DNA of 32,000 bases from Acaryochloris marina MBIC11017 (GTDB lineage Bacteria; Cyanobacteriota; Cyanobacteriia; Thermosynechococcales; Thermosynechococcaceae): the NCBI RefSeq assembly GCF_000018105.1, contig NC_009925.1:4530001-4562000 (forward strand), given 5' to 3'. Positions 6,800 to 32,000 of the stretch are shown here, piece after piece (the stretch's first letter is position 1; each line of letters opens with the position of its first letter). The translations under genes and the position numbers were made by a program. Below the pieces are notes generated by a model, which saw only the letters and a program-made list of their open reading frames with translations, did not search any database and was not told where the DNA came from.

Positions 6800-7029
6800 A
6801 GCCGATCCCATTGTTTTAACTGCTGCCAAGCTTACACATTTTGTCTCCCAGTGACTAGTCCATGCATTGAGCCGATTGAGCTTGCAAAGACAAAGCGTGA
6901 GGACAACCACACGAATTGTTGGGTAAGTATGTTCAGCATTCCCTTATACCAGGAGAGTTCTACATTGCGGTATAACTTCAACACACCAGCATGGGGTTGG
7001 AGAGAATTGACTGAATTAACTGAATAGAT

Positions 7030-7620: not shown

Positions 7621-7635
7621 TAGAGTTCGCGAGTT

Positions 7636-8931: not shown

Positions 8932-8939
8932 GGCCATCC

Positions 8940-12865: not shown

Positions 12866-12891
12866 AGCCCTATCCAACTATCGCAAAAATC

Positions 12892-14205: not shown

Positions 14206-15044
14206 TTGTTCCGTTACCAACCCTGGACTATCAATCTGCCGATGCACCACAACAGTTTGCCCTATCTTTGCAGCACTCTGGGTTTGCGATTCTCCGCCAT
14301 TGTCCAGTGGACCATGAATTAGTGGCGCATACGTACCAAGATTGGCAAACCTTTTTTGAGGGGGATGATAAGGTCCACTATACCTTTGACCCCAAAATAC
14401 AAGTGGGCTACTACCCATTTCAAACGGAACAAGCTAAGGGACATACCACCCCGGACCTCAAAGAGTTCTTTCATATCTATGAAGGTCATCCTCTGCCGAG
14501 GGGCATAGGCGATGCGACTTGGAATTTATTTGACCAACTCAAGCAACTGGCCATCGAACTACTAACATGGATAGAAGCGCAAGCCCCCCTTAGCATTCGT
14601 TCGGACTTTACAGAACCGTTAGACACCATGATTGCAGATAGTAAGGAAACTCTGTTTCGGCTCCTGCACTATCCGCCTCTACCCGATACCATCCCACCCG
14701 GAGCTATTCGGGCAGCGGCCCACGAAGATATCAATTTAATTACGCTATTACCTGCAGCGACGGGAATGGGCTTAGAGTTATTGGATGCTGAAGGGCAGTG
14801 GCAATCCGTAAAGTGCGATCGCGGCGATATTGTCGTCAATGTTGGCGATATGCTGCAGCTTGCGAGCCAAGGGTTTTACCGCTCCACCACCCACCGTGTC
14901 GTTAATCCTGACGGTCCAGCTCGACATCAGTCCCGGTTATCCATGCCCCTGTTTCTCCATCCCCGGCCCGAGGTGGTACTCGCAGACGGCAAAACAGCCC
15001 GACAGTATCTGCAAGAGCGGCTGCGGGAGATTGGCCTCGTTTAA
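14202..15044 (+). CDS. 2-oxoglutarate/Fe(II)-dependent oxygenase (isopenicillin-N-synthase-like family)
   Basis: The track ORF starts at 14097 inside the kinase gene. ATG 14202 overlaps the kinase stop (ATGA at 14202-14205) and gives 280 aa starting MIVPLPTLDY. The facial triad is H-E-D (AAHEDINLITLL) plus THRV, with RLS near the end. Confidence 0.85.
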   Translation: MIVPLPTLDYQSADAPQQFALSLQHSGFAILRHCPVDHELVAHTYQDWQTFFEGDDKVHYTFDPKIQVGYYPFQTEQAKGHTTPDLKEFFHIYEGHPLPRGIGDATWNLFDQLKQLAIELLTWIEAQAPLSIRSDFTEPLDTMIADSKETLFRLLHYPPLPDTIPPGAIRAAAHEDINLITLLPAATGMGLELLDAEGQWQSVKCDRGDIVVNVGDMLQLASQGFYRSTTHRVVNPDGPARHQSRLSMPLFLHPRPEVVLADGKTARQYLQERLREIGLV

Positions 15045-15082
15045 GGACATCACACCTATTAATGTTGAGGGTTTCATACCTA

Positions 15083-16537
15083 TTAATTCGGGGGAGCGAT
15101 ACGGGTCGCAAAATTTTGTGATCGCGTTGGTGACAGCTGGCGCGCTTTCAAAATAGCCGCAGTTAAGAAGACGTAAGCCAACACACCCACCGTCATCAGT
15201 GACAGCACAGCTGCCAATTCTCCAAAATTCCGCGCCAAACTCCCTGACGCATTCCAAAAGGCATGAATCCCGGAAGACACCAGAAAGCCAATTCCTAGGA
15301 TCTGCCATCGCTGGGCTGGCTTGAGTATACTAAGGCCAATAAAATAGCCAAAAATACCGCTATAGGCCATATGGCCGGCAACAGAACCCAAGATCCTGGG
15401 AATCAATAGCTGTACAGCAGCCAATGCTCCCGCAAACTCATTGGCAGACGATCTGGCCACATCTGCCGCAATCCCCGGCACATATTGTCCTAAGGTCTCC
15501 ACCAATGTAAATCCAAGGGCTGAAGCTGCTCCAATTAAAATGCCGTCCAAGGGTTCCCAAACGCCAACTTTTTGCCGACTGGGGGGACGCAGCTGTGATC
15601 CCAAGAAAAAGAAGCCAAAAATTGGCAAGGCTTTCAGTAACTCCTCCATTAAACCCGCCCCAAAGAAGTGGCTAATCAGTTGTGAAATAAAATCTGGAGA
15701 AGCACCTTGAACATTCCCTGGCAAAATTCCTCGAAACACCAAAATAAATAGGCTTAAAACCGGCGTTACCAGAATCACCATGGTGAATATGGTACTGAGA
15801 AGCAGCACCCACCAGGGCTTCTGTTTACCGCACAGCCGATAGATAAAGTAAAAGCCGCCTCCCCCCAGATACAGCGCTAGGAGCAAATTAAACACCGGTG
15901 GGTTGCTGGCAAAGATAAACAGCAACACCACCATCATCACGGTCAGAATGCCGGGTATCAGATACCCTTTGCCCAAGAGATCTTTGCGAGCAGACACGAT
16001 GGGAAACAGTTGACTTACGGTCACCTGATTCGACACCGCGCCCGGTGTTGGCTGAGGGGGGTAAACCGGTGGTTGAGGGGGATAAGATGGTGGCGTTGGC
16101 GAAGGATAGGAGGGCGGTGCAGGCGCAGGAGAGCCCGTTGCCGCAAACTGATCCACTAGCTGGGTGGCGCGATGTTCAAATAGAAATTCAGGGCCGTTAT
16201 GGCTCAACATCACCCGATCCCCCACATTCAAGGTTTGACACCCCTGAATCTTCTGGCCGTTTACATAGGTGCCATTGGCACTATTGAGATCGCAAATTTG
16301 CCAAATGGGAGCACCCTGAGGCGTTCGAGACCCCGTGGGTTTTACCACTGCATGACGACGGGAGACGCCACCAAAAAGGTTGGAATCGATAATGACTTGA
16401 CAGTCCGCTGTCCGGCCAATTGCCGTTTCCTCCGTTTCCGATAGGGAATAACAGGACTGGGCAGCATCAGCATTGGACTGAGCCGAAATAAGTCTGAGTA
16501 AACCACTCTGCCGATCGTTCACCATAGGTTGGTCCAC
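15083..16537 (-). CDS. FHA domain fused to a PrsW-family intramembrane protease domain
   Basis: This 484-aa ORF has a GTG start. The FHA signature is IGRTADCQV...VSRRHAVV...NSANGTYVNG. A Pro-rich linker follows (PPSYPSPTPPSYPPQPPVYPPQP). The polytopic membrane domain carries PrsW-like motifs GLMEELLKALP, FTLVETLGQY, GHMAYSGIFGYF and GIHAFWN. Confidence 0.85.
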   Translation of the reverse strand: MDQPMVNDRQSGLLRLISAQSNADAAQSCYSLSETEETAIGRTADCQVIIDSNLFGGVSRRHAVVKPTGSRTPQGAPIWQICDLNSANGTYVNGQKIQGCQTLNVGDRVMLSHNGPEFLFEHRATQLVDQFAATGSPAPAPPSYPSPTPPSYPPQPPVYPPQPTPGAVSNQVTVSQLFPIVSARKDLLGKGYLIPGILTVMMVVLLFIFASNPPVFNLLLALYLGGGGFYFIYRLCGKQKPWWVLLLSTIFTMVILVTPVLSLFILVFRGILPGNVQGASPDFISQLISHFFGAGLMEELLKALPIFGFFFLGSQLRPPSRQKVGVWEPLDGILIGAASALGFTLVETLGQYVPGIAADVARSSANEFAGALAAVQLLIPRILGSVAGHMAYSGIFGYFIGLSILKPAQRWQILGIGFLVSSGIHAFWNASGSLARNFGELAAVLSLMTVGVLAYVFLTAAILKARQLSPTRSQNFATRIAPPN

Positions 16538-16845
16538 TGCTGATTAATTCTCATGATGGCGCTATTGGTATTGCTGTCTTGAACTAGGAGTCTGTCTTAT
16601 TTCTTAGCAGGATTGGGATATTGCTGCAATCCTAAGAATGCCCACTATTCAGCCATCTATAGCCTGTAGAAGCTTGAGATCGCGGTGATGATTGTCACGG
16701 CGGCACGGGTATGCTGAGGGGAAGGTAAGGATCTAGAGAGTCCTTAAAACAATTGGTACCTTATCCTGCTGTAAGCAAGATCCTGACTATTAATAGGGAA
16801 TACTGCTTCTGCACTTGATTCAGACCTTACGAGCTGGCGGCACCC

Positions 16846-17358
16846 ATGAGTGAATTAACACTCCAATGGTCAGAATTCGGCCAAACCAAAATCCAAGTTT
16901 TACGGGATCAACAGCCCAGCAAGCAGCTGGGGAAAATCCGTTTAGGGCGTGACCCCGCCTTATGCGATATCGTTTTTCAGGAGCGCTCAGTCTCTGGGCT
17001 ACATGTAGAAATTTTCTTTCAGCCCCAAGCTCAACAGTTTTTTATTCGCAATCTGCGCCAACAAAATCCCCCTCTCGTGGATGGCACCTTACTCAAACAG
17101 GGGGATTTGCCCGTGCGAACCGGGAGTCGGATCAAACTCGGACGGGTAGAGCTACAAATCACGGCGATGACCATTACCCCCGCTGCCACGCCACCCACTT
17201 TTCCCAAAAGTGGTCCCCCTTCAACGGCAGCCTATGGATTGCAATGTCCCCAATGTCACCATGTCGCTGCCTATAGTAATGATGCGATTAAGCAAGACTG
17301 TCCCATGTGTGGTCATTCCATGGCCACATCTAACACAGTTTTTATTGGCAAACCCTAA
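16846..17358 (+). CDS. FHA-domain protein with a C-terminal CxxC-x14-CxxC zinc ribbon
   Basis: The 170-aa protein has an FHA core, IRLGRDPALCDIVF...SVSGLHVEIFF...FIRNL. The zinc ribbon is CPQC (17245-17256) and CPMC (17300-17311). Confidence 0.85.
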   Translation: MSELTLQWSEFGQTKIQVLRDQQPSKQLGKIRLGRDPALCDIVFQERSVSGLHVEIFFQPQAQQFFIRNLRQQNPPLVDGTLLKQGDLPVRTGSRIKLGRVELQITAMTITPAATPPTFPKSGPPSTAAYGLQCPQCHHVAAYSNDAIKQDCPMCGHSMATSNTVFIGKP

Positions 17359-17370
17359 GAGTGGTGAAAC

Positions 17371-19329
17371 ATGAGCACTATTCCTGGGCAAGTACGGTTG
17401 AACTGGCAAGATCCCGTTACAGGGGAACAACGCACCCCACTTTTAACCTGTCCGATTGCCTTTGGTCGCGAATTTGCGCAGATGCCTGCAGAACTCAACC
17501 ATCAGCGGGTCGCTCGAATTGTCCTCAATAGTAGCCAAGTCTCCCGTTATCACACCCTGATTGAATGGGTCCAAGGCCATATTCGCGTCACCGACCAAAA
17601 CAGCAGTAATGGGACCTGGGTGAACGGAGTCCTCCAACCTAGCTGCAACGTCAGCAATGGTGATCAACTTAAAATTGGTCCCTACGAAATCACCTTGATG
17701 TTTACCCTGGACGGCACAGGTTTACCCACCGCCGAAGCCAGTGAGCAATCCATTATCCAGGTCCCCGAGCCAGACTCTCCCGTTCCAGCTGTACCTGCTG
17801 CAGCTTCACCAGTCAACATTTTACCCCCTAACTTTCAAGCTCATCAGATTGTTGTTCAAGATCTATATGCCACTCAGCTCCCGGTGGAAGAGATCGATTA
17901 CTTAGCCGTGGGTGCAGGACTCGGCAGCTTTATTTGGGTGAATTTTCTGCGGATTTTTGGTGCCGCCCCCCAGCAAATCCGAGCCCTTGGCATCGAAGAT
18001 CGTCCCTATGCGCGTTACCAGCGACTCTGTCTCAACTCCCAGATCCCCCCTCATGAACGCCTAAGGTCCAACTCAGATTCTTGCCCTGACAACATCTGGG
18101 GATGGCCAGGTTATGCCTTACGAGAAGCGTGGCATGAGTTTAATAAAGGCAAACTCAATCCTGCCCTGCAGTATTTGTGGCAGGTCTTTGCGGAACCCAC
18201 CTTTACCCAAACCTATACCCCCAGGGCAGGCAATGTATTTGCTTCCATTGATCGGGAAGCGGTTCGGATTGGCTGGTCTCAAATCTACCGATTTGGGCGG
18301 GTCCGAGCCATCCGCAAAACCAACGATGGCCGCTATGCCATCGCCTATTCCCCCGGTCGCAAGCAAACCGCCTTTGTGGTTGCCCGTCATGTCCATCTGG
18401 CAACGGGTTATCCCGTTTTACAGTTTTTACCGGACCTGAAAGCTTATCGAGAACAAACCCGAGACTTTAAATCCGTTGTCAATGCCTACGAAGACCATAA
18501 CCATGTTTATGAAACTCTAGAGCGTCAGGGGGGCACAGTCGTTCTGCGGGGGCGAGGAATTGTCGCCTCTCGCATTATTCAACGGCTCCATGAGGCCCGT
18601 CAGCGCAATCCCAATATTTCGATTTTGCACTTGATGCGATCTCCAAAACCGAAAGGCAACCGATTTCGCAAGGCGCAGCGATCCGTCGATAATCACTTTG
18701 AATTCCAGCCCTTTAATTGGCCCAAAGCCTGTTGGGGAGGTACCTTGCGAGAAGAGTTAGAGCAAGCGACCCCTGACCAACGCACGAATTTGCTAGCCGA
18801 CTGGGGAGGGACCACCACAGCAGACCGCAAAGACTGGAAAGAGCTGGTCCAAACAGGACTCGATCAAGGGTGGTATCAAATCACCTTTGGCGAAGTTACC
18901 CGAGTTGTGCCTAATGCCCAATCTCGTCCCACAACCTATATCCAAGAGAAAGGACCCCGGGGTGAGATCAAGCTGGAAGCGGACTTTATCATTGATGCCA
19001 CTGGTTTAGATAGCAAAGTCAAGGCCAGTCCACTCCTCAATGATTTGGTCACTCACTATAATTTGCCCTTGAACCCAGCAGGGCGCTTGGCCGTCGCCAA
19101 TGACTTTGAGCTATTAGAAATGCGTAACCAAAATGGTCGCATGTATGGTGCAGGTGCCATTACCTTTGGGGGACCCTATGCTGCAGTAGACAGCTTTTTA
19201 GGATTACAGTACACCGCCCTACAAGCCGTCGATGGCTTAGTTGCAGCCCGAGCCCCCAATCTCCGTCGGCTCAATGGCCTTAGCTCATTATTGCAATGGC
19301 TGAAATGGGCCCAAAACAAAACTCCTTAA
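17371..19329 (+). CDS. FHA domain fused to a two-dinucleotide-binding-domain flavoprotein (FAD/NAD(P)-dependent oxidoreductase-like)
   Basis: The 652-aa protein has the FHA signature IAFGREF...VSRYHTLIEW...NSSNGTWVNG and a Pro-rich linker. Next come Rossmann motif 1 VGAGLGS (17908-17928) and an ATG motif, HLATGYP. Rossmann motif 2 is LRGRGIVAS (18544-18570), followed by IIDATGLD. The gene starts 12 nt after the previous stop. Confidence 0.85.
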   Translation: MSTIPGQVRLNWQDPVTGEQRTPLLTCPIAFGREFAQMPAELNHQRVARIVLNSSQVSRYHTLIEWVQGHIRVTDQNSSNGTWVNGVLQPSCNVSNGDQLKIGPYEITLMFTLDGTGLPTAEASEQSIIQVPEPDSPVPAVPAAASPVNILPPNFQAHQIVVQDLYATQLPVEEIDYLAVGAGLGSFIWVNFLRIFGAAPQQIRALGIEDRPYARYQRLCLNSQIPPHERLRSNSDSCPDNIWGWPGYALREAWHEFNKGKLNPALQYLWQVFAEPTFTQTYTPRAGNVFASIDREAVRIGWSQIYRFGRVRAIRKTNDGRYAIAYSPGRKQTAFVVARHVHLATGYPVLQFLPDLKAYREQTRDFKSVVNAYEDHNHVYETLERQGGTVVLRGRGIVASRIIQRLHEARQRNPNISILHLMRSPKPKGNRFRKAQRSVDNHFEFQPFNWPKACWGGTLREELEQATPDQRTNLLADWGGTTTADRKDWKELVQTGLDQGWYQITFGEVTRVVPNAQSRPTTYIQEKGPRGEIKLEADFIIDATGLDSKVKASPLLNDLVTHYNLPLNPAGRLAVANDFELLEMRNQNGRMYGAGAITFGGPYAAVDSFLGLQYTALQAVDGLVAARAPNLRRLNGLSSLLQWLKWAQNKTP

Positions 19330-19341
19330 CGATATCCAACC

Positions 19342-19770
19342 ATGACCCCCACTCTGCTCGGACGCTGGCAAACCCGTATTCTGCTTATGGAAACTGTGGG
19401 TCTTGTGATTACCCTCTTGTTTTGCAGTGGTTTTTTCGGTAATCCTGAAGGCTCAGATTATTTTTGGTTGTTGCAATATATTGTTGTCTTTGGTTTAGGC
19501 TGGGACTACCTTTATATCCAAATCCAGAACTTCCGTTGGGACCAAGATTGGCCAGCAGCCCTGCAATGGATCGCAGCGTTATGGGAAGGGCTTTTTATTA
19601 TTTTGCTCAGCGATGTTGCTGAGATTAAATTACCAGGAACCGATGCCTGGAATTTAGGCTGGTTTATCGTTCACTATAGTTTTGTCTGGATAGCCGTTTT
19701 TATCACCTCACAAAGTTTGATGCGCCTTATTTTTCCTCGTTGGCGATTCCGTGGAGGCCAATGGTTCTAA
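19342..19770 (+). CDS. Small Trp-rich integral membrane protein (about 4 TM), last gene of the FHA operon
   Basis: The 142-aa ORF starts 12 nt after the previous stop. It has hydrophobic helices (VGLVITLLFCSGFF, LLQYIVVFGLGW, IAALWEGLFIILL, WFIVHYSFVWIAVFI). I recognise no family. Confidence 0.65.
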   Translation: MTPTLLGRWQTRILLMETVGLVITLLFCSGFFGNPEGSDYFWLLQYIVVFGLGWDYLYIQIQNFRWDQDWPAALQWIAALWEGLFIILLSDVAEIKLPGTDAWNLGWFIVHYSFVWIAVFITSQSLMRLIFPRWRFRGGQWF

Positions 19771-20002
19771 CGCTATGGTGACGGATCAACCCCTAGCTTT
19801 AGCATGCAAGAATCCCTAGTTTAACCTGAGTTCAACACAAGTTAGCCCTTTCCTAATCCCGCAACCATTGTCGTGGAGAGAGAGTCTCTTGATAATAGTG
19901 AACAGAATTATCTCAGGTTAAAAGTTAGAAATCCGTTGTTTAGGAAGGTTCAGTGATTAAAGGAGTCGATTAAATCAAAATTATGGCCTATTAGGCTTAT
20001 AT

Positions 20003-20464
20003 TTAGTCTCTAGACTTAGCATTCGAAGCATCAACTAGCGTAAGTTGAAATTTATCCATTTTCAATTCTGTTCCATTGACCCAGGCAACTTGCTTCCCGC
20101 TCTGATTAAAGACAGTGATGGTTTTATCCTGCTGCATTTCCCAAGAAAATTCCCCCTGATTTTGAAGCGCAAACAAATGCTTTGTTTCAGGAGTATCCAG
20201 GTTGTCTGCGCTTGCTGGCAAAGAACGAAAAATACAATCTCCGACTGTATTACCCACCATAAGTAGAAAGCCAAGATGCTCTCCATTGGAGTTTTGAATA
20301 GCAAACGTTAGACCTGATTTTTGGGGCACACTAGTTTCTTCCTTTATGATGGGCTCTTCCTTTATGATGGGCTCTTCCTTTTGAGAACGAGTATTCACCT
20401 CTTTAGTAGATGTACATGAAGCCAGCAAAATAATCCCAATTGAGAGCAAGAGTCTTATCAACAT
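20003..20464 (-). CDS. Hypothetical lipoprotein
   Basis: The 153-aa protein has the signal peptide and lipobox MLIRLLLSIGIILLASC. The gene is noticeably more AT-rich than its neighbours and contains an in-frame 18-bp tandem duplication. Confidence 0.6.
   Translation of the reverse strand: MLIRLLLSIGIILLASCTSTKEVNTRSQKEEPIIKEEPIIKEETSVPQKSGLTFAIQNSNGEHLGFLLMVGNTVGDCIFRSLPASADNLDTPETKHLFALQNQGEFSWEMQQDKTITVFNQSGKQVAWVNGTELKMDKFQLTLVDASNAKSRD
20338..20381. repeat. 18-bp perfect tandem repeat (2.4 copies) inside the lipoprotein gene
   Basis: CTTCCTTTATGATGGGCT occurs at 20338-20355 and 20356-20373, with a partial third copy. It encodes EEPIIK-EEPIIK-EE on the minus strand. Confidence 0.9.
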
Positions 20465-20572
20465 AGGTAGGGTTGTCTAACAGCAATAGGCAGTAGTGAT
20501 AAAACATGAATGCAGCTCCAAAACCCACATTCAGGCAGAGTGGCTGCGGTCAATAAGGAATAGATGCAGGTT

Positions 20573-22216
20573 TTAAGAAGTGGCCCGATTGTGCTGCATG
20601 CGCAGAGCCAGAATATGCTCACAGGGGCCTTTGAAAAGCTTATTTTGCTGATGCCAATTACACGTACATTCGCCGTGAACCATTCGTTCATCTCGATCAA
20701 TGGCCACAATCGGCTGAAATGTCTTATCCCGATGCTGAACCGTTCCCTGTAACAGCAGGGTGCCCTTCCCATCCACCGAAGACTGACTGACCCGCACCGC
20801 ATTTTGATCCAGGAATCGCGTGGCTTGGGCTTCCCGTTCATTGCTAAAGCGCAGTTTATCCATGGGGAGTGGATCGCGGGCGAGTTCTCTTACCCGATAG
20901 ACCTGCTGGTTGAGATCATAGATGGCTCGTCCCGCTTGGGTATAGGCACTGAGTGCTCCTAACACTATCGATTGATCCAACCCCAAGCGTTTAGCCAGAG
21001 TAGCAGGAGCCTCCACCCAATTTTGCTTCAATGCTTCAAAGACCTGGCGCTTGGTCCAATCATCCACTTGGGCGCGGGGGGCCATTAGGTCGAAATTGCC
21101 TGCCCGTGACCAGTCATTGGCCGTCCATCCCGATAGCCCTAACGTGAAGGACATATCGTTGAGATCAGCCACATAAAACGAGGGCAGTCCTGTTCCCAAC
21201 AGATGCACCGTAAACTTCCGGGCGACAGGAATCAAACGCTCTAAAGTCAGCAATCGTCGTCGCCCCCAAACCCTGACCATTTCTGGTTTACTCCCCTGAT
21301 AAATAGAGCGGGCACAGACGATCTCTTGGTCCCAGGGCTCAAGGACCATGCGAATTGGTTCTCCGGGGGTAAGGTGATAGCGGAGGCTGCGCGGGCCATG
21401 CTTTTCTCGACGACGGCGGAGGGCAAAACAAAGGTTGTAAATATCCATCGGATGCAGGTCGAACTGAATGGCGGGTAGAGCCATGGCCGAACTGACTTGC
21501 AAAAAGCCTCGCACCCAAGTGTCGGGCAAATCGATTTTGACCTCTTTGTAGGCCGCCATGCCTGTGGTCTCGACTTCAAAGCCAGATGGATCAACTTCTA
21601 AGAGGGTTTGCCGATAGCTGCGGATTTTTTGAAATTCGTCGTATAGTGCTGCGGAGTAGTCAACATTGGTGGTGCCACAGGCAAACTCATTGACCTGATC
21701 AAAGACGTTATAGCTGGCCCCTAAGCGACCGTAGCTGGACTCATCCTGACTAAAACACTCAAAGAACACCTCATCTGGGTGGACCGTAATGACGGGGTCG
21801 AGGACAAACCAGGCATCGTAGTCTCTGCGATAGAGGTAGTCAAAATATTGTTGTCTGGCCCGATAGAAGGGGGCTAACCGACTTGAACTGCGGTGGTGTA
21901 GGTCTGTGAGTTCCGATTGGAGGGCTTGGAGTTTGTGGGTGACTTCTTGGCGTTGAGCCGCTACTAATTGCCAATCAATCTCATCCCGTTGCGCTGCCCA
22001 AGCTTTGTAGGCGGTTTTATCTTGGGGCTGAAATCGCAAGTCAGAGACCACCACATCATGAAGGGCACTAATGGCTTCGCGAAAGGCAATATTTTGCCGC
22101 AAGTGCCCCCGAAAATAGGTCGGTTCGCGGGTCAAATCCGGGGAGAAGGACATTTGGGCTTGATTGCCCTGTCCCGATACCCTGCTATTCCGCTTGTAGT
22201 TGTAGTTAAACTCCAT
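20573..22216 (-). CDS. SWIM zinc-finger protein
   Basis: The track ORF extends to 22282 and overlaps the upstream gene. ATG 22216 (MEFNYNYK) lies 35 nt after the WGR gene stop. The C-terminal CTCNWHQQNKLFKGPCEH is a CxCx12CxH SWIM signature (20615-20668). I do not recognise the large N-terminal region. Confidence 0.85.
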   Translation of the reverse strand: MEFNYNYKRNSRVSGQGNQAQMSFSPDLTREPTYFRGHLRQNIAFREAISALHDVVVSDLRFQPQDKTAYKAWAAQRDEIDWQLVAAQRQEVTHKLQALQSELTDLHHRSSSRLAPFYRARQQYFDYLYRRDYDAWFVLDPVITVHPDEVFFECFSQDESSYGRLGASYNVFDQVNEFACGTTNVDYSAALYDEFQKIRSYRQTLLEVDPSGFEVETTGMAAYKEVKIDLPDTWVRGFLQVSSAMALPAIQFDLHPMDIYNLCFALRRRREKHGPRSLRYHLTPGEPIRMVLEPWDQEIVCARSIYQGSKPEMVRVWGRRRLLTLERLIPVARKFTVHLLGTGLPSFYVADLNDMSFTLGLSGWTANDWSRAGNFDLMAPRAQVDDWTKRQVFEALKQNWVEAPATLAKRLGLDQSIVLGALSAYTQAGRAIYDLNQQVYRVRELARDPLPMDKLRFSNEREAQATRFLDQNAVRVSQSSVDGKGTLLLQGTVQHRDKTFQPIVAIDRDERMVHGECTCNWHQQNKLFKGPCEHILALRMQHNRATS

Positions 22217-22250
22217 GCAAACTCTCTCGGCTAATAGACGGCTCAATGAT

Positions 22251-25200
22251 TTAGGACAAGGCAGCAGGCTCTCGCACAGCAACTGGCTTGACTTGCAAGG
22301 GTACTGAGATCTGGGGATAGGCGCTGTGAATCTTTAATAAAATCTCCAATGCCCGAGCGCGATCGCAAATGGCAATCGTCACGGACTGGCGAGTCAAAAT
22401 TTCAGCGATAATCTCTGCAGCTTCCAGACTTTTGGTTGCTTCGGTTTCCAGAAAGGCATAGACCCGCTGCTTGGTGATCCGACCGCGATTGACTTGGGCC
22501 AAGACCCGCGTAAAGTAAGGCTTCAGTTCTTGCAGTCGCTGGGGATTATCCACCACATAGGTCTGCAGATATTGGGTAGCAAAAAGCTGCATATCGGTGG
22601 CGGGATGCTCACTAAATTTGAGCAAGTAGCTGTCTCCATCGGCATCGCGGAAACAGCGACCCACCAAATCGCGACCCAGTTGGCGAACCTGGGGAAGGTT
22701 GCTATCGCAAATGCTAATCACCACCGCAGGGGTGAGTTCATCGGGCTTTAGATCATCGCGAAACAGCTTAAAGCCAAATTGGCGGGTGTCTTCCCAGGTG
22801 GACTCCAGCACTCGTACGATATCCAGCAAATCCAATTCGCTCTGCCGCAACCGGGGCAAAATCGCTTCTAGCATTCGCCATCCGGCGGTGCGCACGGATA
22901 GCATTTCATGGTGGGTGAATTGGGCAATCTCAGTGGTGGGCAGGGTAGCCGACCAGCGATCGCAATGATGTTGCAACACATAACCTGCCATTTCCTGGGC
23001 TGCGGGGGATTCTGATTCTAGGAGTGGGTGAACCTGCTCAGGGATAATAGGGTCCATCCATCCCGGCAGATCCTGACGCAGTAGCTCCGTTAAAAAGCGA
23101 TGGATGCCCTCTGCTTCTTCCGGTGTTTGCAAGACCTCCAGTAGTGGTTGGGCCAGGTGCTGACTAAAGCTTGGTTGGGCCGCAGCCATACGCTGAATGG
23201 CTGGACGAATGGCCGAACGCATGTCAGCGAGGGGATGAGCGATCAGGGTGAGTAATAGTCCTGTTTGTTCCATCAACACCGCATCGGGCAATTGACTGAG
23301 GAGCCGTACCCCAACCACCCGCACGGAATCGAAGGGAGAATCAATCAGAGCATCAATCAGACCCGGCGGCAGTTCCGTCACCGGAGTGGTGTGGTTCAGC
23401 AGAATCCGCGCTCCAAAGGTCTGCATCTCTGCAGTGGGGTAGCGCAAGATATCCAAAACCACTTCCAAACCGAGGGTCCGCAACTGAGCCCCAAAACTGA
23501 GAAATAGGGTTTCGCTAATATCGATGACCCAGTCTTCTGTTGGGATGCTTTCAGGCGCTTGGTTTAAGAGAATGGCAATCACCTGATCCAAAATCGCCCG
23601 TGCCCTTGTATCCTCCAGTAAGGCCGTGCTTAACAGTCGGCGACTAAAGGCCCGCATATCGGCAGGTTTACAGGTTATCAACTGGGCAATTAGCTGACTG
23701 TCGTTGAGGAACACATCCCGCTGAGCCATAATCCAGTCTTGAGCTTGCTGACGAGCGGGGGCATAGTTACAGGCTGCGATCGCAAGTATCAATTCCCGAT
23801 TGGGTTGGGCTGGGTTATAGCGAGCCTGGGCGATCTCAAACCCCAACTGGGCCGTGATTTCATAGGGACGTTCCAGCAACCGGATCACGCTCTCTAAGGG
23901 TAAGTGCTCCAGAAATGATCGATTGGACCGAAGGGCTTTAACCGCAAACCCATGAACGGGCTGGCAGCAGCTGTCCAACAATAAGCGCAGTAATGCATTA
24001 GGCTGCTGGTCCCATAAATGGGGAAATGCCTCTTCCCGTCCAGGGGGAGCCGGATCACCCGGTTTATAGGAGGGCTGACAACGCCAGGCTTTATTGGCAG
24101 GCTTAAGGACATAGCGAGGGCTTTGTTCATAGAGAACATGGTTAAAAGCGAGATACCCCGCAAAGAGATCCCAGTTAACCCGCCCCGTTTCCACTCGGCT
24201 ATAGCTATTCCGCCAATCCCAACGATAGAAAACCGATTCCCGAGTGCACCCGGCATCCTCATCGGCATATTGCAACAACAGATCCACGGCAAAGGTGACA
24301 TAGCTAGGGTCGCCTGCTTGACCAAGCTTGCGCAAGGTCCGCCAAACTCGACGCCGCAGGTAGGCGCGGGTTTTGTCGCTGTAGGCTAAGCGAGTATCTG
24401 GACGCCGTTGTTCTGCGGTAATCGGATTATCCGTGGTCCGCTCATACCGTCCTGTTCGGGAATTATAGGTATACCCGGCATAGAGATATTCCCCATCCGG
24501 CAGTCGTACCCCATAGCCTTGGTTGCGGTAGAGGGCCTCTTCTTGCTCAAATCGGTAGGCCAATAGCCCAAAGACTTCAGTATCCTGGCGATATTCGGCC
24601 ATCTTGAAAATATGGCGGAGTCGCTGGAAGTAGCTGGGGCGCAATGGGGCCGATTGAATCACCTCAAGTATGGCAGGCCGGGTTAGCTCACTATCAATTT
24701 GGTACAGGATATCGAGCACGGCCAAGGTCTGGGGAGAGGCATTCGCGTCTAAGGTGCTTCTGAGGGTCTCTGTTAGTGCGTTGGCTGGGCCTTGGCGAGC
24801 CAGGGTACGCAAATCTGGCGGCAATTGTAAAATTCGCTCTTGCCGCAGGGCATCCCGTTGAGCCTCAGTCCCCAGCTTCAGGAGCGCTTCCAGGGTAATG
24901 CGCTGCACAAACTCTGCCCCAGGCTGGCGATAACGCTGTTCTAACCCCGCGTAGGTGGTCTGATCGCCACATTGCCCCAGTGCCCAGGCAATACAGTAAT
25001 TTCTCAGATCTTCTGGACTCCAAAGTTGCAGCAATAGGGGCGCTGCAGCTTGAATTTTTAATTCGCCCGCCCGCCAGATTACCCGATTTAGGGACCATTG
25101 CTTAGCCCCAGGACGGGGGGCTGCAGAGGATTGAAGAGCAGCGGCTAAGCGATTTAAGACGGCTTGCGATCGCGCATTCGGATCAACCGGTGTCTCGATT

Positions 25201-25487
25201 GGGGTGGGTGCCGGGACCGCCGTCGTCTCTGGTGGGCTAGCTTCTCCCGTACTGACGCGATACCCTTTGCGCAATTTGGCATTGATTAGTCGATCAAAGA
25301 TACGCTGCGCCATTTCTAACGGCACCGCAGACACCGTTTCGGAACCTTCCTTTAAGGCGGTGCCTTGGCGACCATAGCGAAAATTAACCACATAAGCCTC
25401 GTCACTCACCTGGCACAGATCCACCTCATACACTTTTTCAGTACGACCCGCTTGATATACCAGGGTGGTTCGCTGAATCAGTTGCAT
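22251..25487 (-). CDS. Large WGR-domain protein with a HEAT/ARM-like alpha-solenoid body
   Basis: The 1078-aa protein has an N-terminal ~80 aa that match the WGR pattern: TLVYQAGRTEKVYEVDL...YVVNFRYGRQGTALKEGSETV...A..IFDRLINAKLRKGYR. A Pro/Thr linker follows, then PBS-lyase-type HEAT motifs (e.g. AAPLLLQLW...CIAWALGQCGD). The rest is a long leucine-rich helical repeat region. Confidence 0.88.
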   Translation of the reverse strand: MQLIQRTTLVYQAGRTEKVYEVDLCQVSDEAYVVNFRYGRQGTALKEGSETVSAVPLEMAQRIFDRLINAKLRKGYRVSTGEASPPETTAVPAPTPIETPVDPNARSQAVLNRLAAALQSSAAPRPGAKQWSLNRVIWRAGELKIQAAAPLLLQLWSPEDLRNYCIAWALGQCGDQTTYAGLEQRYRQPGAEFVQRITLEALLKLGTEAQRDALRQERILQLPPDLRTLARQGPANALTETLRSTLDANASPQTLAVLDILYQIDSELTRPAILEVIQSAPLRPSYFQRLRHIFKMAEYRQDTEVFGLLAYRFEQEEALYRNQGYGVRLPDGEYLYAGYTYNSRTGRYERTTDNPITAEQRRPDTRLAYSDKTRAYLRRRVWRTLRKLGQAGDPSYVTFAVDLLLQYADEDAGCTRESVFYRWDWRNSYSRVETGRVNWDLFAGYLAFNHVLYEQSPRYVLKPANKAWRCQPSYKPGDPAPPGREEAFPHLWDQQPNALLRLLLDSCCQPVHGFAVKALRSNRSFLEHLPLESVIRLLERPYEITAQLGFEIAQARYNPAQPNRELILAIAACNYAPARQQAQDWIMAQRDVFLNDSQLIAQLITCKPADMRAFSRRLLSTALLEDTRARAILDQVIAILLNQAPESIPTEDWVIDISETLFLSFGAQLRTLGLEVVLDILRYPTAEMQTFGARILLNHTTPVTELPPGLIDALIDSPFDSVRVVGVRLLSQLPDAVLMEQTGLLLTLIAHPLADMRSAIRPAIQRMAAAQPSFSQHLAQPLLEVLQTPEEAEGIHRFLTELLRQDLPGWMDPIIPEQVHPLLESESPAAQEMAGYVLQHHCDRWSATLPTTEIAQFTHHEMLSVRTAGWRMLEAILPRLRQSELDLLDIVRVLESTWEDTRQFGFKLFRDDLKPDELTPAVVISICDSNLPQVRQLGRDLVGRCFRDADGDSYLLKFSEHPATDMQLFATQYLQTYVVDNPQRLQELKPYFTRVLAQVNRGRITKQRVYAFLETEATKSLEAAEIIAEILTRQSVTIAICDRARALEILLKIHSAYPQISVPLQVKPVAVREPAALS

Positions 25488-25684: not shown

Positions 25685-27007
25685 TTAAGATTCTTGGGCA
25701 AACTCTTCAGGATCCGTATCCCAATTCACCCAGCGAATGGCTTCCCGTGCGGACTGAATACTGGGGGGAACCCGAGTGGCGTGAATATAGCCTGTGCTAG
25801 GACAGGTCATCTTCAATAAATAAATCGGTTCCACATCAATCGCGGGGGAAATGCGCAACAGTGTATATTCTCGCCATGTATTCAGGGCTTCGGCCTGCAA
25901 TTCCTGACAAAGGCGGTCATAGCCAATCCCTTGAATCAACACCCGCCGCAGTTCGGCATTCTGTTCATGGATCAGCCAATCGGCCTTCCAGACATGGGGA
26001 TGGACGGTGCCATATCGCTCTGGGATTTGCACGCCATGAAACTGATAACTACGATAGCCGTCCGCAAACTGGAGGGCTGCCCCCCCTTCGTAGTGAAAGC
26101 GCCCTTCGGGGTCCGCATGGCACTGTATAGGCCGATCGAACACGACACACATCTGCTCAAAAGGAAGGATTAAACCGCAATGCGTGGATAGCGATCGCAA
26201 CTGTGTCCACGCTTCTGGCTCATGATCGCACTCTAGAACCTCAATGCAATAGTCCAAAAGAGCAGGATGTAAGACTTCAGAAGTTTGGGTTAAAGCCTGC
26301 CAGCCCATACCAACCAACCCCATGGTCGTGAGCATTTGCTGCATTCCCTGTTCCCAAGCCTGTACCTCAGGCTGTTGGCGAAAAGGGTGAATTACAGCAT
26401 CTTCCAAGGCCTGTCCTACCGGCTCTCCCCATTGCCACAGGGTCTCTCCCACATGGACCAGCAAGTCTCCGCCAGGCTGACTTTGAATCGCTTGTCGCCA
26501 CTCCGTTTGTTGCTGCTGCCACAGTTGGTCCCACAGACTGGGGGACCAACCTCCCCAGGGGGCCGTATCTTCTTCTACATGCTGGGTGTTCCACGCAAAC
26601 AGCTCAGCCAAAGGGGTCCAGGTAATCAGACTCAAATTTTGGGATAGGGTTGCTAATTCGGCAACTTTTAGGCGTTCACTAATTTCTACCAGCAATTCCG
26701 CCCGCAGCTGAGATCGAACTTGGTGACTGAGCTGTTTGGCTAAAGGAAGGGTCAACAAAGGGACCCCCCACTGGTTGAGCAGTTGATCAATCCGGCGTTC
26801 TTGCAGGTAAGCCTGGGCTTCTAAAGGGCCAGAAAAAAATAGAATTTCAGGTTGCCGCTTCCCCATCAGAGCATAGCTGCGCTGAATGGTTTGCTCCACT
26901 TGCTGCGTTTCAATGGGCGTTGTGGCGCAGGAAACCGCTAGCCAACGCTGAAAGAACGCTTCAATTTGTGCATCTTGAATGGGCGTTAAGGTATCAATCG
27001 GCCACAT
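25685..27007 (-). CDS. Hypothetical protein with a C-terminal DUF6745-like domain (family assignment from memory)
   Basis: The track ORF extends to 27169 across the upstream gene. ATG 27007 (MWPIDTLTPIQDAQIEAFFQRW) overlaps the upstream stop by 14 nt. The C-terminal part reads FHYEGGAALQFADGYRSYQFHGVQIP...NAELRRVLIQGIGYDRL...CPSTGYIHATRVPP...A.EAIRW. Confidence 0.75.
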   Translation of the reverse strand: MWPIDTLTPIQDAQIEAFFQRWLAVSCATTPIETQQVEQTIQRSYALMGKRQPEILFFSGPLEAQAYLQERRIDQLLNQWGVPLLTLPLAKQLSHQVRSQLRAELLVEISERLKVAELATLSQNLSLITWTPLAELFAWNTQHVEEDTAPWGGWSPSLWDQLWQQQQTEWRQAIQSQPGGDLLVHVGETLWQWGEPVGQALEDAVIHPFRQQPEVQAWEQGMQQMLTTMGLVGMGWQALTQTSEVLHPALLDYCIEVLECDHEPEAWTQLRSLSTHCGLILPFEQMCVVFDRPIQCHADPEGRFHYEGGAALQFADGYRSYQFHGVQIPERYGTVHPHVWKADWLIHEQNAELRRVLIQGIGYDRLCQELQAEALNTWREYTLLRISPAIDVEPIYLLKMTCPSTGYIHATRVPPSIQSAREAIRWVNWDTDPEEFAQES

Positions 27008-27305
27008 AGTGCCAACCTTCTGGCTCATATTCCCGTTGAATACGAACCTGCCAAGTCCCTTGAGGGATGGAGAGGGCGTTATGTTCTTCGTGGGTGAGGG
27101 TGGCTTCCGGTGAGAGAACCCGCAAGTAAAGGGTGCCATCCTTTTCATACAGCTCGGCTTGTCCTTCACTGATGCGATGGCTGTGTCCCGTCACTTCACC
27201 TTCCGCCAACGTCAAATGGGGAAGTTGCCGACCTAAGCTAGGCGTGGTGTTGGACAAAGGTCTGAGGATTACATCACCTTGACGAATGGGTTGCATCTCT
27301 GTCAT
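26994..27305 (-). CDS. Small beta-rich hypothetical protein (about 103 aa)
   Basis: The track ORF starts at 27335. GGAGGA lies 12 nt upstream of ATG 27305 (MTEMQPIRQGDV), so I prefer that start. Conserved-looking motifs are QGDV, AEGEVTGHSH, THEEH and QREY. I recall similar small proteins in phage and bacterial genomes but cannot name a family. Confidence 0.6.
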   Translation of the reverse strand: MTEMQPIRQGDVILRPLSNTTPSLGRQLPHLTLAEGEVTGHSHRISEGQAELYEKDGTLYLRVLSPEATLTHEEHNALSIPQGTWQVRIQREYEPEGWHYVAD

Positions 27306-27859: not shown

Positions 27860-30800
27860 TTAGACAAGTGTAACGTGAGTATTTATGTTGAAGCCCACTT
27901 GATTGGTAAGAATAGCCAACGTATCACTGTAAGCCCCCCCCACAAACAGCTCACCTGTAGCTGCATTGAACGTAATATCACTGAGGCTCGTCACCCCAAA
28001 AGAAGCTTGGGAAATCTCGATAATATCTCCCTGGTTAGCGTTGAAGTCTGTAATGCGGTCAATTCCTCCTGTAGCAGCGAGCCCAGCAAAAGCGAAAGTA
28101 TCCGCATCGGCTCCGCCAGTGAGGATATCGTTACCTGCTCCCCCCACAAGTCGGTCGTTTCCAGTTCCGCCAATTAAGATATCGTCAACGCTGTTAGAAA
28201 GCGATACTATGACTTGACTTTCTCCAAAACCGATCACATCGGCTTGACCATCTCCATTTACATCAGCTAATTGTCGAGGATAACGGTCGTCGCTTGTCCA
28301 GCCGCCTTTTGTATGGGTAAATACATCAGTGGCAGTAAAAGCAGTCCCAAAGGTGCCATCACTTTGTCCTAACGACACGACGACGGAGCGATAGCCAAAG
28401 CCAACAATGTCCGCGCGACCATCTCCATTCATATCGGCCAACTGTCGTGGGAAGCGGTCGTTGCTGGTCCAACCACCACCTGTATTTGAAAATAAATCGG
28501 TAGCCGTAAAAGCAGTCCCAAAGGTGCCATCACTTTGTCCTAACGACACGACGACGGAGCGATAGCCAAAGCCAACAATGTCCGCACGACCATCTCCATT
28601 CACATCGGCCAACTGTCGTGGGAGGCGGTCGTTGCTAGTCCAACCACCACCTACACTAGAAAATAAATCGGTAGCCGTAAATGCAGTGCCAAAGGTGCCA
28701 TCACTTTGTCCTAACGACACGGCGACGGAGCGATAGCCAAAGCCAACAATGTCCGCGCGACCATCTCCATTCACATCGGCTAACTGTCGTGGGAAGCGGT
28801 CGTTGCTAGTCCAACCACCACCTGTATTTGAAAATAAATCGGTAGCCGTAAATGCAGTGCCAAAGGTGCCATCACTTTGTCCTAACGATACGATGACGGA
28901 GCGATAGCCAAAGCCAACAATGTCCGCACGACCATCTCCATTCACATCGGCTAACTGTCGTGGGAAGCGGTCGTTGCTAGTCCAACCACCACCTGTATTT
29001 GAAAATAAATCGGTAGCCGTAAATGCAGTGCCAAAGGTGCCATCACTTTGTCCTAACGACACGACGACGGAGCGATAGCCAAAGCCAACAATGTCTGCGC
29101 GACCATCTCCATTCACATCGGCCAGCTGTCTTGGGAAGCGATCGTTGCTGGTCCACCCCCCATTCGCAAGAGTAAAGGCAGTAGTAGCAGAAATTATTCT
29201 GCCGAAGGCTATAGCATCAGAGTTGATTGCTCCGTTACTTACTCCATCGATAAGAACATCATCACCTGCACCGCCTTCTAGGATATCTGCTCCCAGTCCA
29301 CCGATGAGGGTGTCATTACCGTCATTACCGATGAGACTATCATTCCCCTCCCCTGCATCGATGTTTTCTGCTTGGCTGCTTCCAGAAATGGTATCGTTGC
29401 CACCGTTAGTCTTGATAAGAATTGGCGGACTCGTGATTAAACTGGTAGGGACGGTAATTGTGTTGGTTCCATCCCCTGTTGCACCAGCTATGGTGTGACC
29501 CAGTAGATTATTGGGGTCATGAATGGTGACATTGGTTCCATCTGAAGAAATTGACAAATTATCGTTGTCGGTAATGAAGGCATCGGTGATAATCAGATTG
29601 CCAGAGCTGTCTAAAGAGACCAACGTGTCATAAACGCCATTGATCGTGACGGTTGCAGTTTGTGGGGTATTGCCACCATTGCCATCAGAGACAACGTAAC
29701 TGTATGTGATAACTTCACTTTCGCCTACTGCCAATGAGTTGTAGGCATTCGGGTTAACTTCTAGACGATTGCCATTGACCGTCACTCCAGATGCATCACC
29801 ACTGGTTACGGTGAGGCTACTGACATTGATCGTGTCAGTCGTATCTGGATCTGAGGCTCTTGCTAGAAGGTCTACGTTGAAGGTGCCATCATCTTCAGTG
29901 GCTGTGGCTGTAACGGCGGAGGCTACGATAGGTGCATCATTGGCACCTGTAATAGTGACGGTTGCAGTTTGTGGGATATTGCCACCATTGCCATCAGAGA
30001 CAACGTAGCTATAGACGATAACTTCACTTTCACCTACCGCTAGGGCATTGTAGGCACTGGGGTTAACTTCTAGACGATTGCCATTAACCGTCACCCCAGA
30101 CGCATCACCACTGGTTACGGTCAAATTAATCGCATTGAGTGTGTCAGTCGTATCTGGATCTGAGGCTCCTGCTAGAAGGTCTACGTTGAAGGTGCCATCA
30201 TCTTCAGTGGCTGTGGCTGTAACGGCGGAGGCTACGATAGGTGCATCATTGGCACCTGTAATAGTGACGGTTGCAGTTTGTGGGATATTGCCACCATTGC
30301 CATCAGAGACAACGTAGCTATAGACGATAACTTCACTTTCACCTACCGCTAGGGCATTGTAGGCACTGGGGTTAACTTCTAGACGATTGCCATTAACCGT
30401 CACCCCAGACGCATCACCACTGGTTACGGTCAAATTAATCGCATTGAGTGTGTCAGTCGTATCTGGATCTGAGGCTCCTGCTAGAAGGTCTACGTTGAAG
30501 GTGGCAGCATCTTCCGAGGCTGTGGCTGTGACAGCGGCTGCTACGACAGGTGCATCATTAGCACCTGTAATCGTGATGGTTGCAGTTTGTGGGGTATTGC
30601 CACCATTGCCATCCGAGACAACGTAGCTATAGACAATAACTTCGCTTTCGCCTACTGCCAGTGAGTTGTAGGCAGTGGGATTAATCTGAAGGCTGTTGCC
30701 ATTGACCGTCACTCCAGATGCATTTCCACTGGTTACGGTGAGGCTACTGACATTGATCGTGTCAGTCGTATCTGGATCTGAGGTTCCTGCTAGAAGGTCT

Positions 30801-32000
30801 ACGTTGAAGGTGGCAGCATCTTCAGAGGCTGTGGCTGTAACGGCGGAGGCTACGATAGGTGCATCATTGGCACCTGTAATAGTGACGGTTGCAGTTTGTG
30901 GGATATTGCCACCATTGCCATCAGAGACAACGTAGCTATAGACGATAACTTCACTTTCACCTACCGCTAGGGCATTGTAGGCACTGGGGTTAACTTCTAG
31001 ACGATTGCCATTAACCGTCACCCCAGACGCATCACCACTGGTTACGGTCAAATTAATCGCATTGAGTGTGTCAGTCGTATCTGGATCTGAGGCTCCTGCT
31101 AGAAGGTCTACGTTGAAGGTGGCAGCATCTTCCGAGGCTGTGGCTGTGACAGCGGCTGCTACGACAGGCGCATCATTAGCACCTGTAATCGTGATGGTTG
31201 CAGTTTGTGGGGTATTGCCATCATTGCCATCCGAGACAACGTAGCTATAGACGATAACTTCGCTTTCGCCTACTGCTAGGGAGTTATAAGCACTGGGGTT
31301 CACCTGCAGACTGTTGCCATTGACCGTCACTCCAGACGCATCACCACTGGTAACAGTGAGGTTACTGACATTGATCGTGTCAGTCGTATCAGGATCTGTA
31401 GCGCCCGCTAAAAGGCTTACGTTGAAGGTGGCAGTATCTTCAGTGGCTGTGGCTGTGACAGCGGCTGCTACGACAGGTGCATCATTGGCACCTGTGATCG
31501 TGACCGTAGCGGTTTGAGGGACAGACCCCCCATTCCCATCAGTGATGTTGTAGCTATAGACGATAACTTCACTTTCGCCTTCTGCCAGTGAGTTGTAGGC
31601 AGTGGGATTAATCTGAAGGCTGTTGCCATTAACCGTCACCCCAGACGCATCACCACTGGTTACGGTCAAATTAATCGCATTGAGTGTGTCAGTCGTATCT
31701 GGATCGGTGGCTCCCTGTAGAAGGTCTACGTTGAAGGTGGCAGCATCTTCAGAGGCTGTGGCTGTGACAGCGGCTGCTACAACAGGTGCATCATTGACAC
31801 CCGAGACAGTGACGGTGACGGTTGCTGAGGCACTGGTGGCATTGGACTCACCACTGTTATCAGTGGCAGTGTAGGTAAAGCTAACATCTCGCATTTCGCC
31901 CGCGGCCAAGTTTTGGAAGGCACTGCCGGGGTTAAAGGTGAAGGTACCATTGTTGTTGTTAACGACACTGCCTTCGCTGAGACTACTTGTGATGTTAAAG
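27860..32000 (-). CDS. Giant repetitive RTX-type adhesin, a probable type I secretion substrate. The domain order is VCBS/cadherin-like 103-aa repeats, RTX nonapeptides, a six-blade FG-GAP-like repeat block, and RTX plus a C-terminal tail. The 5' end lies beyond the window.
   Basis: The track starts it at TTG 31909, but the frame stays open to base 32000 ([38 protein letters not shown]). There are at least 7 units ending in GANDAPV. The RTX runs are [24 protein letters not shown] and [26 protein letters not shown]. The FG-GAP-type blades carry [14 protein letters not shown]. Confidence 0.92.
28195..29165. repeat. 171-bp (57-aa) tandem array of about 5.7 units encoding FG-GAP-like blades
   Basis: The period was measured from GATAGCCAAAGCCAACAATGTCCGC at 28390 and 28561. 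In the one pair of adjacent units I counted, they differ at about 12 of 171 positions, with the differences clustered at the blade junction. Confidence 0.93.
29640..32000. repeat. 309-bp (103-aa) tandem array of at least 7 units encoding VCBS/cadherin-like domains, which continues past the window edge
   Basis: Antisense shadow ORFs start at 29769, 30078, 30387, 30696, 31005, 31314 and 31623, exactly 309 bp apart. The stretch 29860-30194 is identical to 30169-30503. Confidence 0.95.

Follow-up and report, generated by a model that had tools for sequence, protein, structure and literature searches.

The WGR-HEAT and SWIM gene pair of Acaryochloris marina MBIC11017 as the probable protein-partner half of a split type XIII retron

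A 32-kb stretch of the Acaryochloris marina MBIC11017 genome (the window, by which the whole analysed sequence is meant throughout) carries on its minus strand two adjacent genes, one for a 1078-amino-acid (aa) protein with a WGR domain and a HEAT/ARM solenoid and one for a 547-aa protein ending in a SWIM zinc finger. The question raised by this locus is to which system the two proteins belong, and whether they form a system by themselves. A preliminary description, made from the sequence alone, had taken them for an uncharacterised two-component module and a minimal version of the Escherichia coli yeh cluster. Profile searches, comparison with orthologous loci and structure prediction led to another answer: the pair is very probably the protein-partner half of a type XIII retron (Mx162/Mx65 class), split at the stop codon of the SWIM gene, with an intact non-coding RNA (ncRNA) and reverse transcriptase (RT) lying about 273 kb away.

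Identity of the gene pair

Both open reading frames (ORFs) were found intact and co-oriented, with the lengths previously described (coordinates are given in Table 1). The start of the SWIM gene was set at the ATG at 22216 (MEFNYNYK...), which is common to all orthologues; the mechanically called ORF reaches further, to a TTG at 22282. With no database other than Pfam and NCBIfam, both window proteins had sub-threshold matches only. Using PADLOC, the WGR-HEAT protein matched the model WGR_XIII with 1155 bits (residues 1–1071 on model positions 1–972 of 973) and the SWIM protein matched SWIM_XIII with 806 bits (residues 1–544 on model positions 1–505 of 509).

The PADLOC XIII models go back to the classification of retrons published by Mestre et al. 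2020 (PMC7736814), where type XIII comprises Retron-Mxa1/Mx162, Mxa2/Mx65, Nex2/Ne144 and Sau1/Sa163 and has a clade-10 RT by its accessory genes. According to the same study, the two defining proteins are clusters 216_1 (WGR-like plus HEAT/ARM) and 114_1, the latter with the motif Dx7[D]x4Ex30-32Dx37E (DEDE), a predicted winged helix and, at the C-terminus, a CxCx12CxH SWIM finger; RT and WGR/HEAT protein show co-evolution, and inheritance of the type is largely vertical. The SWIM protein of the window carries the acidic motif as D140-x7-D148-x4-E153-x32-D186-x38-E225, the last spacing being one residue above that published. Because both PADLOC matches run end to end and the published acidic motif is present, the pair is a catalogued type XIII accessory pair (clusters 216_1 and 114_1), and the idea of an unrecognised module was abandoned, as dedicated models and published clusters already name it.

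Of the elements of a type XIII locus, the window contains the SWIM/winged-helix protein and, on the same strand, the preceding WGR-HEAT gene, at a distance measured as 34 nt rather than the 35 nt first reported. It contains neither an adjacent RT nor an msr-msd RNA. Pfam and PADLOC searches across the 32 kb found no ATPase, MoxR AAA+, vWA or nuclease gene and, on ORFs of at least 100 aa, no RT gene; tblastn with the RT of a neighbouring genome against the window likewise gave nothing, and with the RNase T, p169, p158, WGR-propeller and NACHT proteins of that neighbour it gave nothing significant. Rfam, run in E-value mode on the window, reported one tRNA only and no retron RNA. The window searches thus bear out the earlier statement that no ATPase, nuclease or toxin domain accompanies the pair. 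It had also been stated that no function is experimentally established, and this too stands, as the literature searches gave no paper on the function of the pair or on the mechanism or function of type XIII, and no solved partner structure. A promoter and terminator scan of the locus gave nothing above chance.

Linkage and separation of the ncRNA and reverse transcriptase

For comparative analysis, 83 loci encoding SWIM orthologues were examined (numbered with the prefix L below), mostly from cyanobacteria, plus Acidobacteria at 67–71% identity. Loci of this type are usually arranged as WGR-HEAT gene, SWIM gene, msr-msd RNA and RT gene, the WGR-HEAT gene lying upstream of the SWIM gene on the same strand in most of the loci. 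An RT_XIII-like gene was present within 10 kb of the pair in 47/83, all except one of them (46/47) downstream on the same strand with gaps of 280–8111 nt, and no RT was found within 6–10 kb in 20 of the 67 evaluable loci, these 20 having 6 kb or more of sequence to either side. A conserved ncRNA of about 205 nt was recovered from the regions upstream of the RT. RNAalifold folded it with 51 pairs, 36 of which showed compensatory changes, and its nhmmer profile scored 100–200 bits in more than 60 loci. The ncRNA starts less than 400 nt from the SWIM stop codon in 60/83 loci (median about 31 nt), and it directly follows the SWIM gene in 13 loci without a nearby RT, whereas its distance to the RT ranges from 27 to 7789 nt. 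Of the two genes, the SWIM gene is therefore the one to which the ncRNA is more tightly linked, and this close linkage across the wider family is a new observation.

Several further features of these loci were recorded. In 12 loci the SWIM gene is followed immediately by a tandem array of 2–5 ncRNA copies, and Acidobacteria have the longest arrays; it is unusual for one retron locus to carry an array of several msr-msd copies. Its first hairpin (alignment A2 columns 17–36; e.g. L044, L056) has a conserved GATCGC-containing loop, which in some cyanobacteria is a complete HIP1 site (GCGATCGC). All Chamaesiphon loci (L001, L017, L018, L019, L022, L077) are without ncRNA and RT near the pair, and their pair is well conserved (SWIM 73–74% and WGR-HEAT 50–54% identical to the window proteins). 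A 473-aa protein with a WGR domain and a beta-propeller (PQQ/WD40-like) is found repeatedly no more than 10 kb from type XIII loci, 56–71% identical across phyla, and may be a further accessory component outside the table of Mestre et al. 2020 (PMC7736814); in A. marina its gene is convergent with the RT gene and overlaps the RT 3' end by 17 nt.

In the window itself the ncRNA profile reached 4.9 bits at best (E 0.14), from which the ncRNA was taken to be absent. The RT of MBIC11017 is ABW29762.1, which scored 662.8 bits against RT_XIII and keeps the NAxxH, YADD and VTG motifs. The arrangement of the two halves was measured in the complete A. marina chromosome AP026075.1, whose sequence runs collinear with that of the window (97.4% nucleotide identity). 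There, the SWIM gene lies at about 1,409,888–1,411,531 on the minus strand and the RT gene at 1,684,442–1,685,872 on the plus strand, with the ncRNA 63 nt upstream of the RT (E 3.9e-54), RNase T and p169 genes before the ncRNA and RT, and a convergent WGR/beta-propeller gene after the RT. The pair and the ncRNA/RT are therefore about 273 kb apart and on opposite strands, and the pair is not the self-contained unit that had been proposed. One sequencing sample (DRR194263) contained both the exact SWIM protein of the window and the exact RT.

In a sister genome (L002, SWIM protein 95% identical, block 87% identical at the DNA level) both halves are contiguous, in the order pair, three genes, ncRNA and RT (RT_XIII 660 bits). 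Positions 4839–11646 of L002 align to the pair locus of A. marina and 12289–21644 to its RT locus, and only a 158-aa gene lies between. Past the SWIM stop codon, the window has a lipoprotein gene at the place taken elsewhere by the ncRNA and later the RT. An inversion with one of its ends precisely at the SWIM stop codon would agree with strand and position. One clean event of this kind accounts for strand and distance in AP026075.1, but it was set aside as the full explanation, since the upstream flank of the 6.8-kb block containing the pair also differs between the window and L002 and L004. More than one rearrangement is therefore indicated.

Both ORFs are full length and unchanged in 11–14 independent assemblies. 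Ratios of non-synonymous to synonymous substitution rates (dN/dS) against L002 and L004, respectively, were 0.035 and 0.041 for the SWIM gene and 0.064 and 0.086 for the WGR-HEAT gene, at synonymous distances (dS) of 0.24–0.76 for the pair comparisons. The pair is thus kept by purifying selection. For the A. marina instance, the split arrangement with both halves conserved is new.

Domains of the two proteins and genomic surroundings

In the full-length WGR-HEAT protein, the WGR domain scored 21.9 bits against a Pfam cut-off of 22, and 23.8 bits when the N-terminal 400 aa were searched alone; all 21 orthologues tested matched PF05406 (best E 4.5e-10). HEAT_2 reached 26.2 bits in the window protein (cut-off 27.7), and among the orthologues HEAT_2 was found in 21/21 and HEAT_PBS in 7/21. 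The PADLOC HEAT-ARM_XIII models cover residues 229–1066, and no Pfam match to DUF4132 was obtained. The SWIM finger, CTCNWHQQNKLFKGPCEH, scored 16.1 bits against a cut-off of 19.6, while PF04434 was matched by 44/56 family members. Its four ligand residues (C517, C519, C532 and H534) are invariant over 56 homologues of 26–95% identity, in agreement with the C-terminal CxCx12CxH finger described before. Both domain assignments of the preliminary description are accordingly marginal in the window proteins and solid in the orthologue families. A PDB sequence search detected no solved relatives of either protein.

The structure of the SWIM protein was predicted with AlphaFold2 (AF2). An alignment of 13 close orthologues gave an unusable model (predicted local distance difference test, pLDDT, 46.7), and an alignment of 56 diverse homologues gave a pLDDT of 83.3 and a predicted template modelling score (pTM) of 0.80. 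The predicted architecture consists of N-terminal beta strands, a long helical segment, a beta/alpha region, a winged helix and a beta-rich C-terminal SWIM domain. The beta/alpha region is predicted as two beta-alpha-beta-beta-beta-type domains, which superpose on whole PCNA monomers. Using Foldseek against the PDB, the top 50 matches were all PCNA or sliding clamps (probability 1.00, E down to 1.6e-8), with target-normalised template modelling (TM) scores of 0.56–0.72 for PCNA monomer chains. A viral structure library (BFVD) returned PCNA, DnaN beta clamps, herpesvirus processivity factors and unnamed proteins, the top clamps with probability 1.00. A PCNA/sliding-clamp fold is therefore predicted for the central region from one AF2 model; this predicted fold is new, a transposase-like motif having been suggested earlier for the region, and in the library searched there was no paper linking retrons to a clamp-fold partner. 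D140, D148, E153, D186 and E225 are invariant in cyanobacterial orthologues, E153 remaining invariant and D186 nearly so in the wider family, and these ‘DEDE’ residues sit within the first clamp-like domain. For the winged helix, the family profile weakly matched winged helix-turn-helix (wHTH) proteins among the PDB sequences (eS25, TFE, MarR/AdcR, Z-alpha) at profile positions of about 368–445 (best E 4.9e-4), and single members matched MarR, DprA_WH and HTH_5 in Pfam.

Table 1. Features of the window and of compared loci. Positions are those of the window unless a locus number is given.
Feature	Positions	Strand	Basis or remark
WGR + HEAT/ARM solenoid protein, 1078 aa	22251..25487	-	ORF; = ABW29502.1 (AM1_4526), A. 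marina MBIC11017, exact look-up
WGR domain, residues 13-79	25251..25451	-	Pfam PF05406, 21.9-23.8 bits; 21/21 orthologues match
First recognisable HEAT repeats, residues 136-202; solenoid runs on to C-terminus	24882..25082	-	Pfam HEAT_2
Spacer between WGR-HEAT and SWIM genes, 34 nt	22217..22250	-	identical gap in independent assemblies
Coiled-coil/clamp-like/winged-helix/SWIM protein, 547 aa	20573..22216	-	= ABW29501.1 (AM1_4525), A. marina MBIC11017, exact look-up
Long helical (coiled-coil-like) segment, residues 42-131	21824..22093	-	AF2 helices 42-57, 68-86, 90-131
Predicted two-domain DNA-clamp (PCNA-like) fold, residues ~137-365	21122..21808	-	AF2 + Foldseek
Winged-helix domain, residues ~385-445	20882..21064	-	family profile vs PDB sequences, Pfam
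SWIM zinc finger CxCx12CxH (C517, C519, C532, H534)	20615..20668	-	translation; invariant, 56 homologues
Synteny breakpoint at SWIM stop codon	20571..20583	.	window blastn alignments to L002, L004 end at 20571, 20583
DUF6745 protein, 440 aa	25685-27007	-	Pfam DUF6745 85 bits
p103	26994-27305	-	overlaps DUF6745 gene by 14 nt
FHA-PrsW intramembrane protease	15083-16537	-	
FHA + zinc-ribbon protein	16846-17358	+	
FHA + large uncharacterised C-terminal region	17371-19329	+	
Small membrane protein after FHA genes	19342-19770	+	
Giant repetitive surface protein, cadherin-like/FG-GAP-like/RTX-like repeats	27860-31909, continuing beyond window	-	
WGR + beta-propeller gene	L002 15340-16761; L091 11415-12836	- (both)	also L006, L009, L021, L029, L034, L041, L082
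ncRNA tandem arrays	L029 11738-12704; L076 11729-12705; L082 11739-12581		also L056, L061, L068, L075, L031

Upstream of the pair, the genes for p103 and the DUF6745 protein travel together with it as the 6.8-kb block in the window, L002 and L004, in Acaryochloris only. They show dN/dS values of 0.06–0.09 and have relatives in PHROG (phrog_27831 and phrog_31813, phage families of unknown function). They were considered as a third component and rejected, as they adjoin the pair only in Acaryochloris (3/84 loci counting the window), and they are outside the canonical type XIII retron.

HIP1 sites number 12 in the window against 0.29 expected by chance, and four of the 12 lie within the WGR gene, where several had been noted before. 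Elsewhere in the window, three FHA-domain genes cluster at 15083–19770, and the GC content falls to 0.34 at 7001–8000, compared with about 0.49 elsewhere, upstream of an HlyD-like gene and a cellulose-synthase-like glycosyltransferase with a PilZ domain (7636–11090). The giant surface gene has many near-identical internal repeats and is a break point of short-read assemblies; its homologue in AP026075.1 is at least 2634 aa long.

Alternative explanations, proposed mechanism and known systems

That the two proteins form a stand-alone nucleic-acid-sensing module, independent of RT and of multicopy single-stranded DNA (msDNA), is improbable. It would account for a window in which neither RT nor ncRNA lies within 20 kb to one side of the pair or 6.5 kb to the other, for the 20 of 67 evaluable loci without a nearby RT, for the seven loci with long flanks that have neither RT nor ncRNA, and for purifying selection on the pair despite the separation. 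However, an intact RT_XIII and ncRNA exist in the same species, the 13 loci without a nearby RT still have the ncRNA directly after the SWIM gene, and the RT was present elsewhere in every case that could be checked: in Tumidithrix helvetica it adjoins the WGR-HEAT gene, with the SWIM gene more than 10 kb from it and prokaryotic Argonaute (pAgo) and toxin-antitoxin genes between; in Limnofasciculus, RT and SWIM genes are on one contig more than 10 kb apart; and in Cyanosarcina the RT is on a contig that differs in length from that of the SWIM gene. The co-evolution of RT and WGR-HEAT protein (Mestre et al. 2020, PMC7736814) also speaks against independence. A rearrangement that broke the retron and left the orphaned pair as a non-functional, decaying remnant is very unlikely, even though the break in the canonical order of genes falls right at the SWIM stop codon. 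The dN/dS of 0.035–0.086 indicates that the pair is maintained, the full-length ORFs are identical in 11–14 assemblies, the distant RT and ncRNA are also intact, and the split layout occurs in at least two A. marina strains, with the spacing of protein accessions suggesting it for CCMEE 5410 too.

The lowest probability was given to the pair being a minimal yehF/yehH(molR)/yehI – yehLMPQ system that had lost its MoxR and vWA genes. The analogy drawn in the preliminary description holds in so far as a WGR protein (YehF, PF05406, 61 bits) and a SWIM protein (YehQ) occur at the E. coli locus; it fails as homology beyond these domain types. The YehQ finger is N-terminal (residues 56–88) and that of the window protein C-terminal, the family alignment against YehQ gave an hhalign probability of 0.8%, and YehI has a DUF4132 that the WGR-HEAT protein lacks, without BLASTP similarity between the two (best E 0.66). 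Genes of yeh type were shown in 0/83 loci, which had not been gathered through such genes, and PADLOC places the pair in retron XIII. The SWIM protein being a domesticated DDE/Mutator-like transposase or a nuclease effector is unlikely, if somewhat less so than the other alternatives. SWIM fingers occur in MuDR transposases, and the five acidic residues are invariant in cyanobacterial orthologues, with E153 invariant and D186 nearly so family-wide. It was from the DEDE motif that Mestre et al. 2020 (PMC7736814) made this suggestion. Against it, residues ~137–365 resemble sliding clamps in the model, the matches listed from two structure libraries included no RNase H-like or transposase fold, and none of the 56 members matched a transposase or nuclease family in Pfam.

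Several points weigh against the split-retron reading. Neither RT nor ncRNA lies nearby in seven loci whose flanks both reach 6 kb or more, that of Chamaesiphon minutus PCC 6605 (CP003600.1) among them, and six further loci without ncRNA have shorter flanks. Lusitaniella coriacea and Chlorogloeopsis fritschii PCC 6912 likewise carry the pair with no RT or ncRNA close by. The SWIM protein is 66–78% identical across cyanobacteria and Acidobacteria; such strong conservation, together with the reported vertical inheritance, is atypical for defence and would point to a domesticated function rather than immunity, and a housekeeping role may be considered. Characterised retrons have a catalytic effector, whereas none is recognisable in the pair, and both phage defence by type XIII and action of its parts in trans are putative. 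The clamp fold comes from a single model: by sequence, the family profile gave wHTH proteins only among the PDB sequences, and hhalign of one clamp domain against the other detected no internal duplication.

Type XIII includes the first retrons ever found (Mx162), and in the structurally characterised retrons (types I and II) accessory proteins are held or positioned by an RT/msDNA particle. Since known particles do so and the type XIII RT co-evolves with the WGR-HEAT protein, binding in trans is proposed for the split retron. The RT would make msDNA from the adjacent ncRNA at the 1.68-Mb locus, and the resulting diffusible RT/msDNA particle would be bound by the WGR-HEAT and SWIM proteins. 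The WGR domain and HEAT solenoid may serve as a scaffold binding msDNA and RT, the SWIM protein may grip the long msDNA duplex stem through its predicted PCNA-like clamp module and winged helix, and the SWIM finger and coiled coil may mediate assembly. The complex would be a nucleic-acid surveillance device, most likely anti-phage by analogy with other retrons. As the separated partners remain under strong selection, the system can probably act in trans.

Defence genes were recorded in or beside several type XIII loci, and they weakly support an immune role. In Chamaesiphon minutus (L001, 2617–9887) a type I restriction-modification (R-M) system and YgjP separate the WGR-HEAT gene from the SWIM gene. 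A Piwi/pAgo gene and a PhD/YefM antitoxin gene lie at the Tumidithrix locus (L088, 1–2329), type I R-M and ParE genes beside the RT of A. marina (L091, 1–6343), and an NACHT NTPase gene upstream of the type XIII locus of L002 (2405–4705).

A more speculative extension, which we consider doubtful though less so than any of the alternatives above, is a trans-acting retron without an enzyme effector, in which the WGR-HEAT scaffold and the clamp-core SWIM protein capture the RT/msDNA particle made at the distant locus and the clamp loads onto the long msDNA hairpin or onto invading DNA. If true, type XIII would be a vertically inherited device for DNA surveillance or DNA metabolism, not a classical toxin-based abortive infection system, and the ncRNA would be linked to the SWIM gene because the RNA is expressed together with the proteins that receive it. 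With a presumed effector predicted to be DNA-clamp-like and not a nuclease, assays of msDNA or DNA loading make more sense than toxicity assays. Defence finders that work by gene neighbourhood will probably overlook this locus, since its parts lie 273 kb from each other. Among retron types, XIII is one of the most abundant and of the widest in taxonomic range; a 2026 metagenome survey placed it third of 28 groups.

Compared with known systems, the pair shares with the E. coli yeh cluster the WGR and SWIM domain types, two small promiscuous domains, whereas DUF4132, MoxR AAA+, vWA and YehM are present there and absent in the window. WGR in PARPs is a reader of DNA ends and nicks; the WGR-HEAT protein resembles PARP-type WGR proteins in its N-terminal WGR domain (PF05406), but it is without the PARP catalytic domain and its WGR is fused to a HEAT/ARM solenoid of about 1000 aa. 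To PCNA and beta clamps, the SWIM protein is likened by the predicted fold of its clamp-like region, without sequence similarity and with the module set between a coiled coil and the winged helix and SWIM finger. Characterised retrons (Ec86/Eco1, Eco8, type I-A Ec78/Ec83) have RT and msDNA complexed with co-encoded accessory proteins, which is the likeness; they are contiguous and have an obvious effector (NDT, OLD nuclease, PtuAB and others), whereas the A. marina locus is split and has no recognisable catalytic domain. The closest likeness is to type XIII retrons, in both accessory families end to end, in the HEAT/ARM gene preceding the SWIM gene, and in an RT_XIII and a structured ncRNA within the species; A. 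marina differs from them in having the RT and msr-msd outside the cassette on the other strand, and the extra genes p103 and DUF6745 with the pair.

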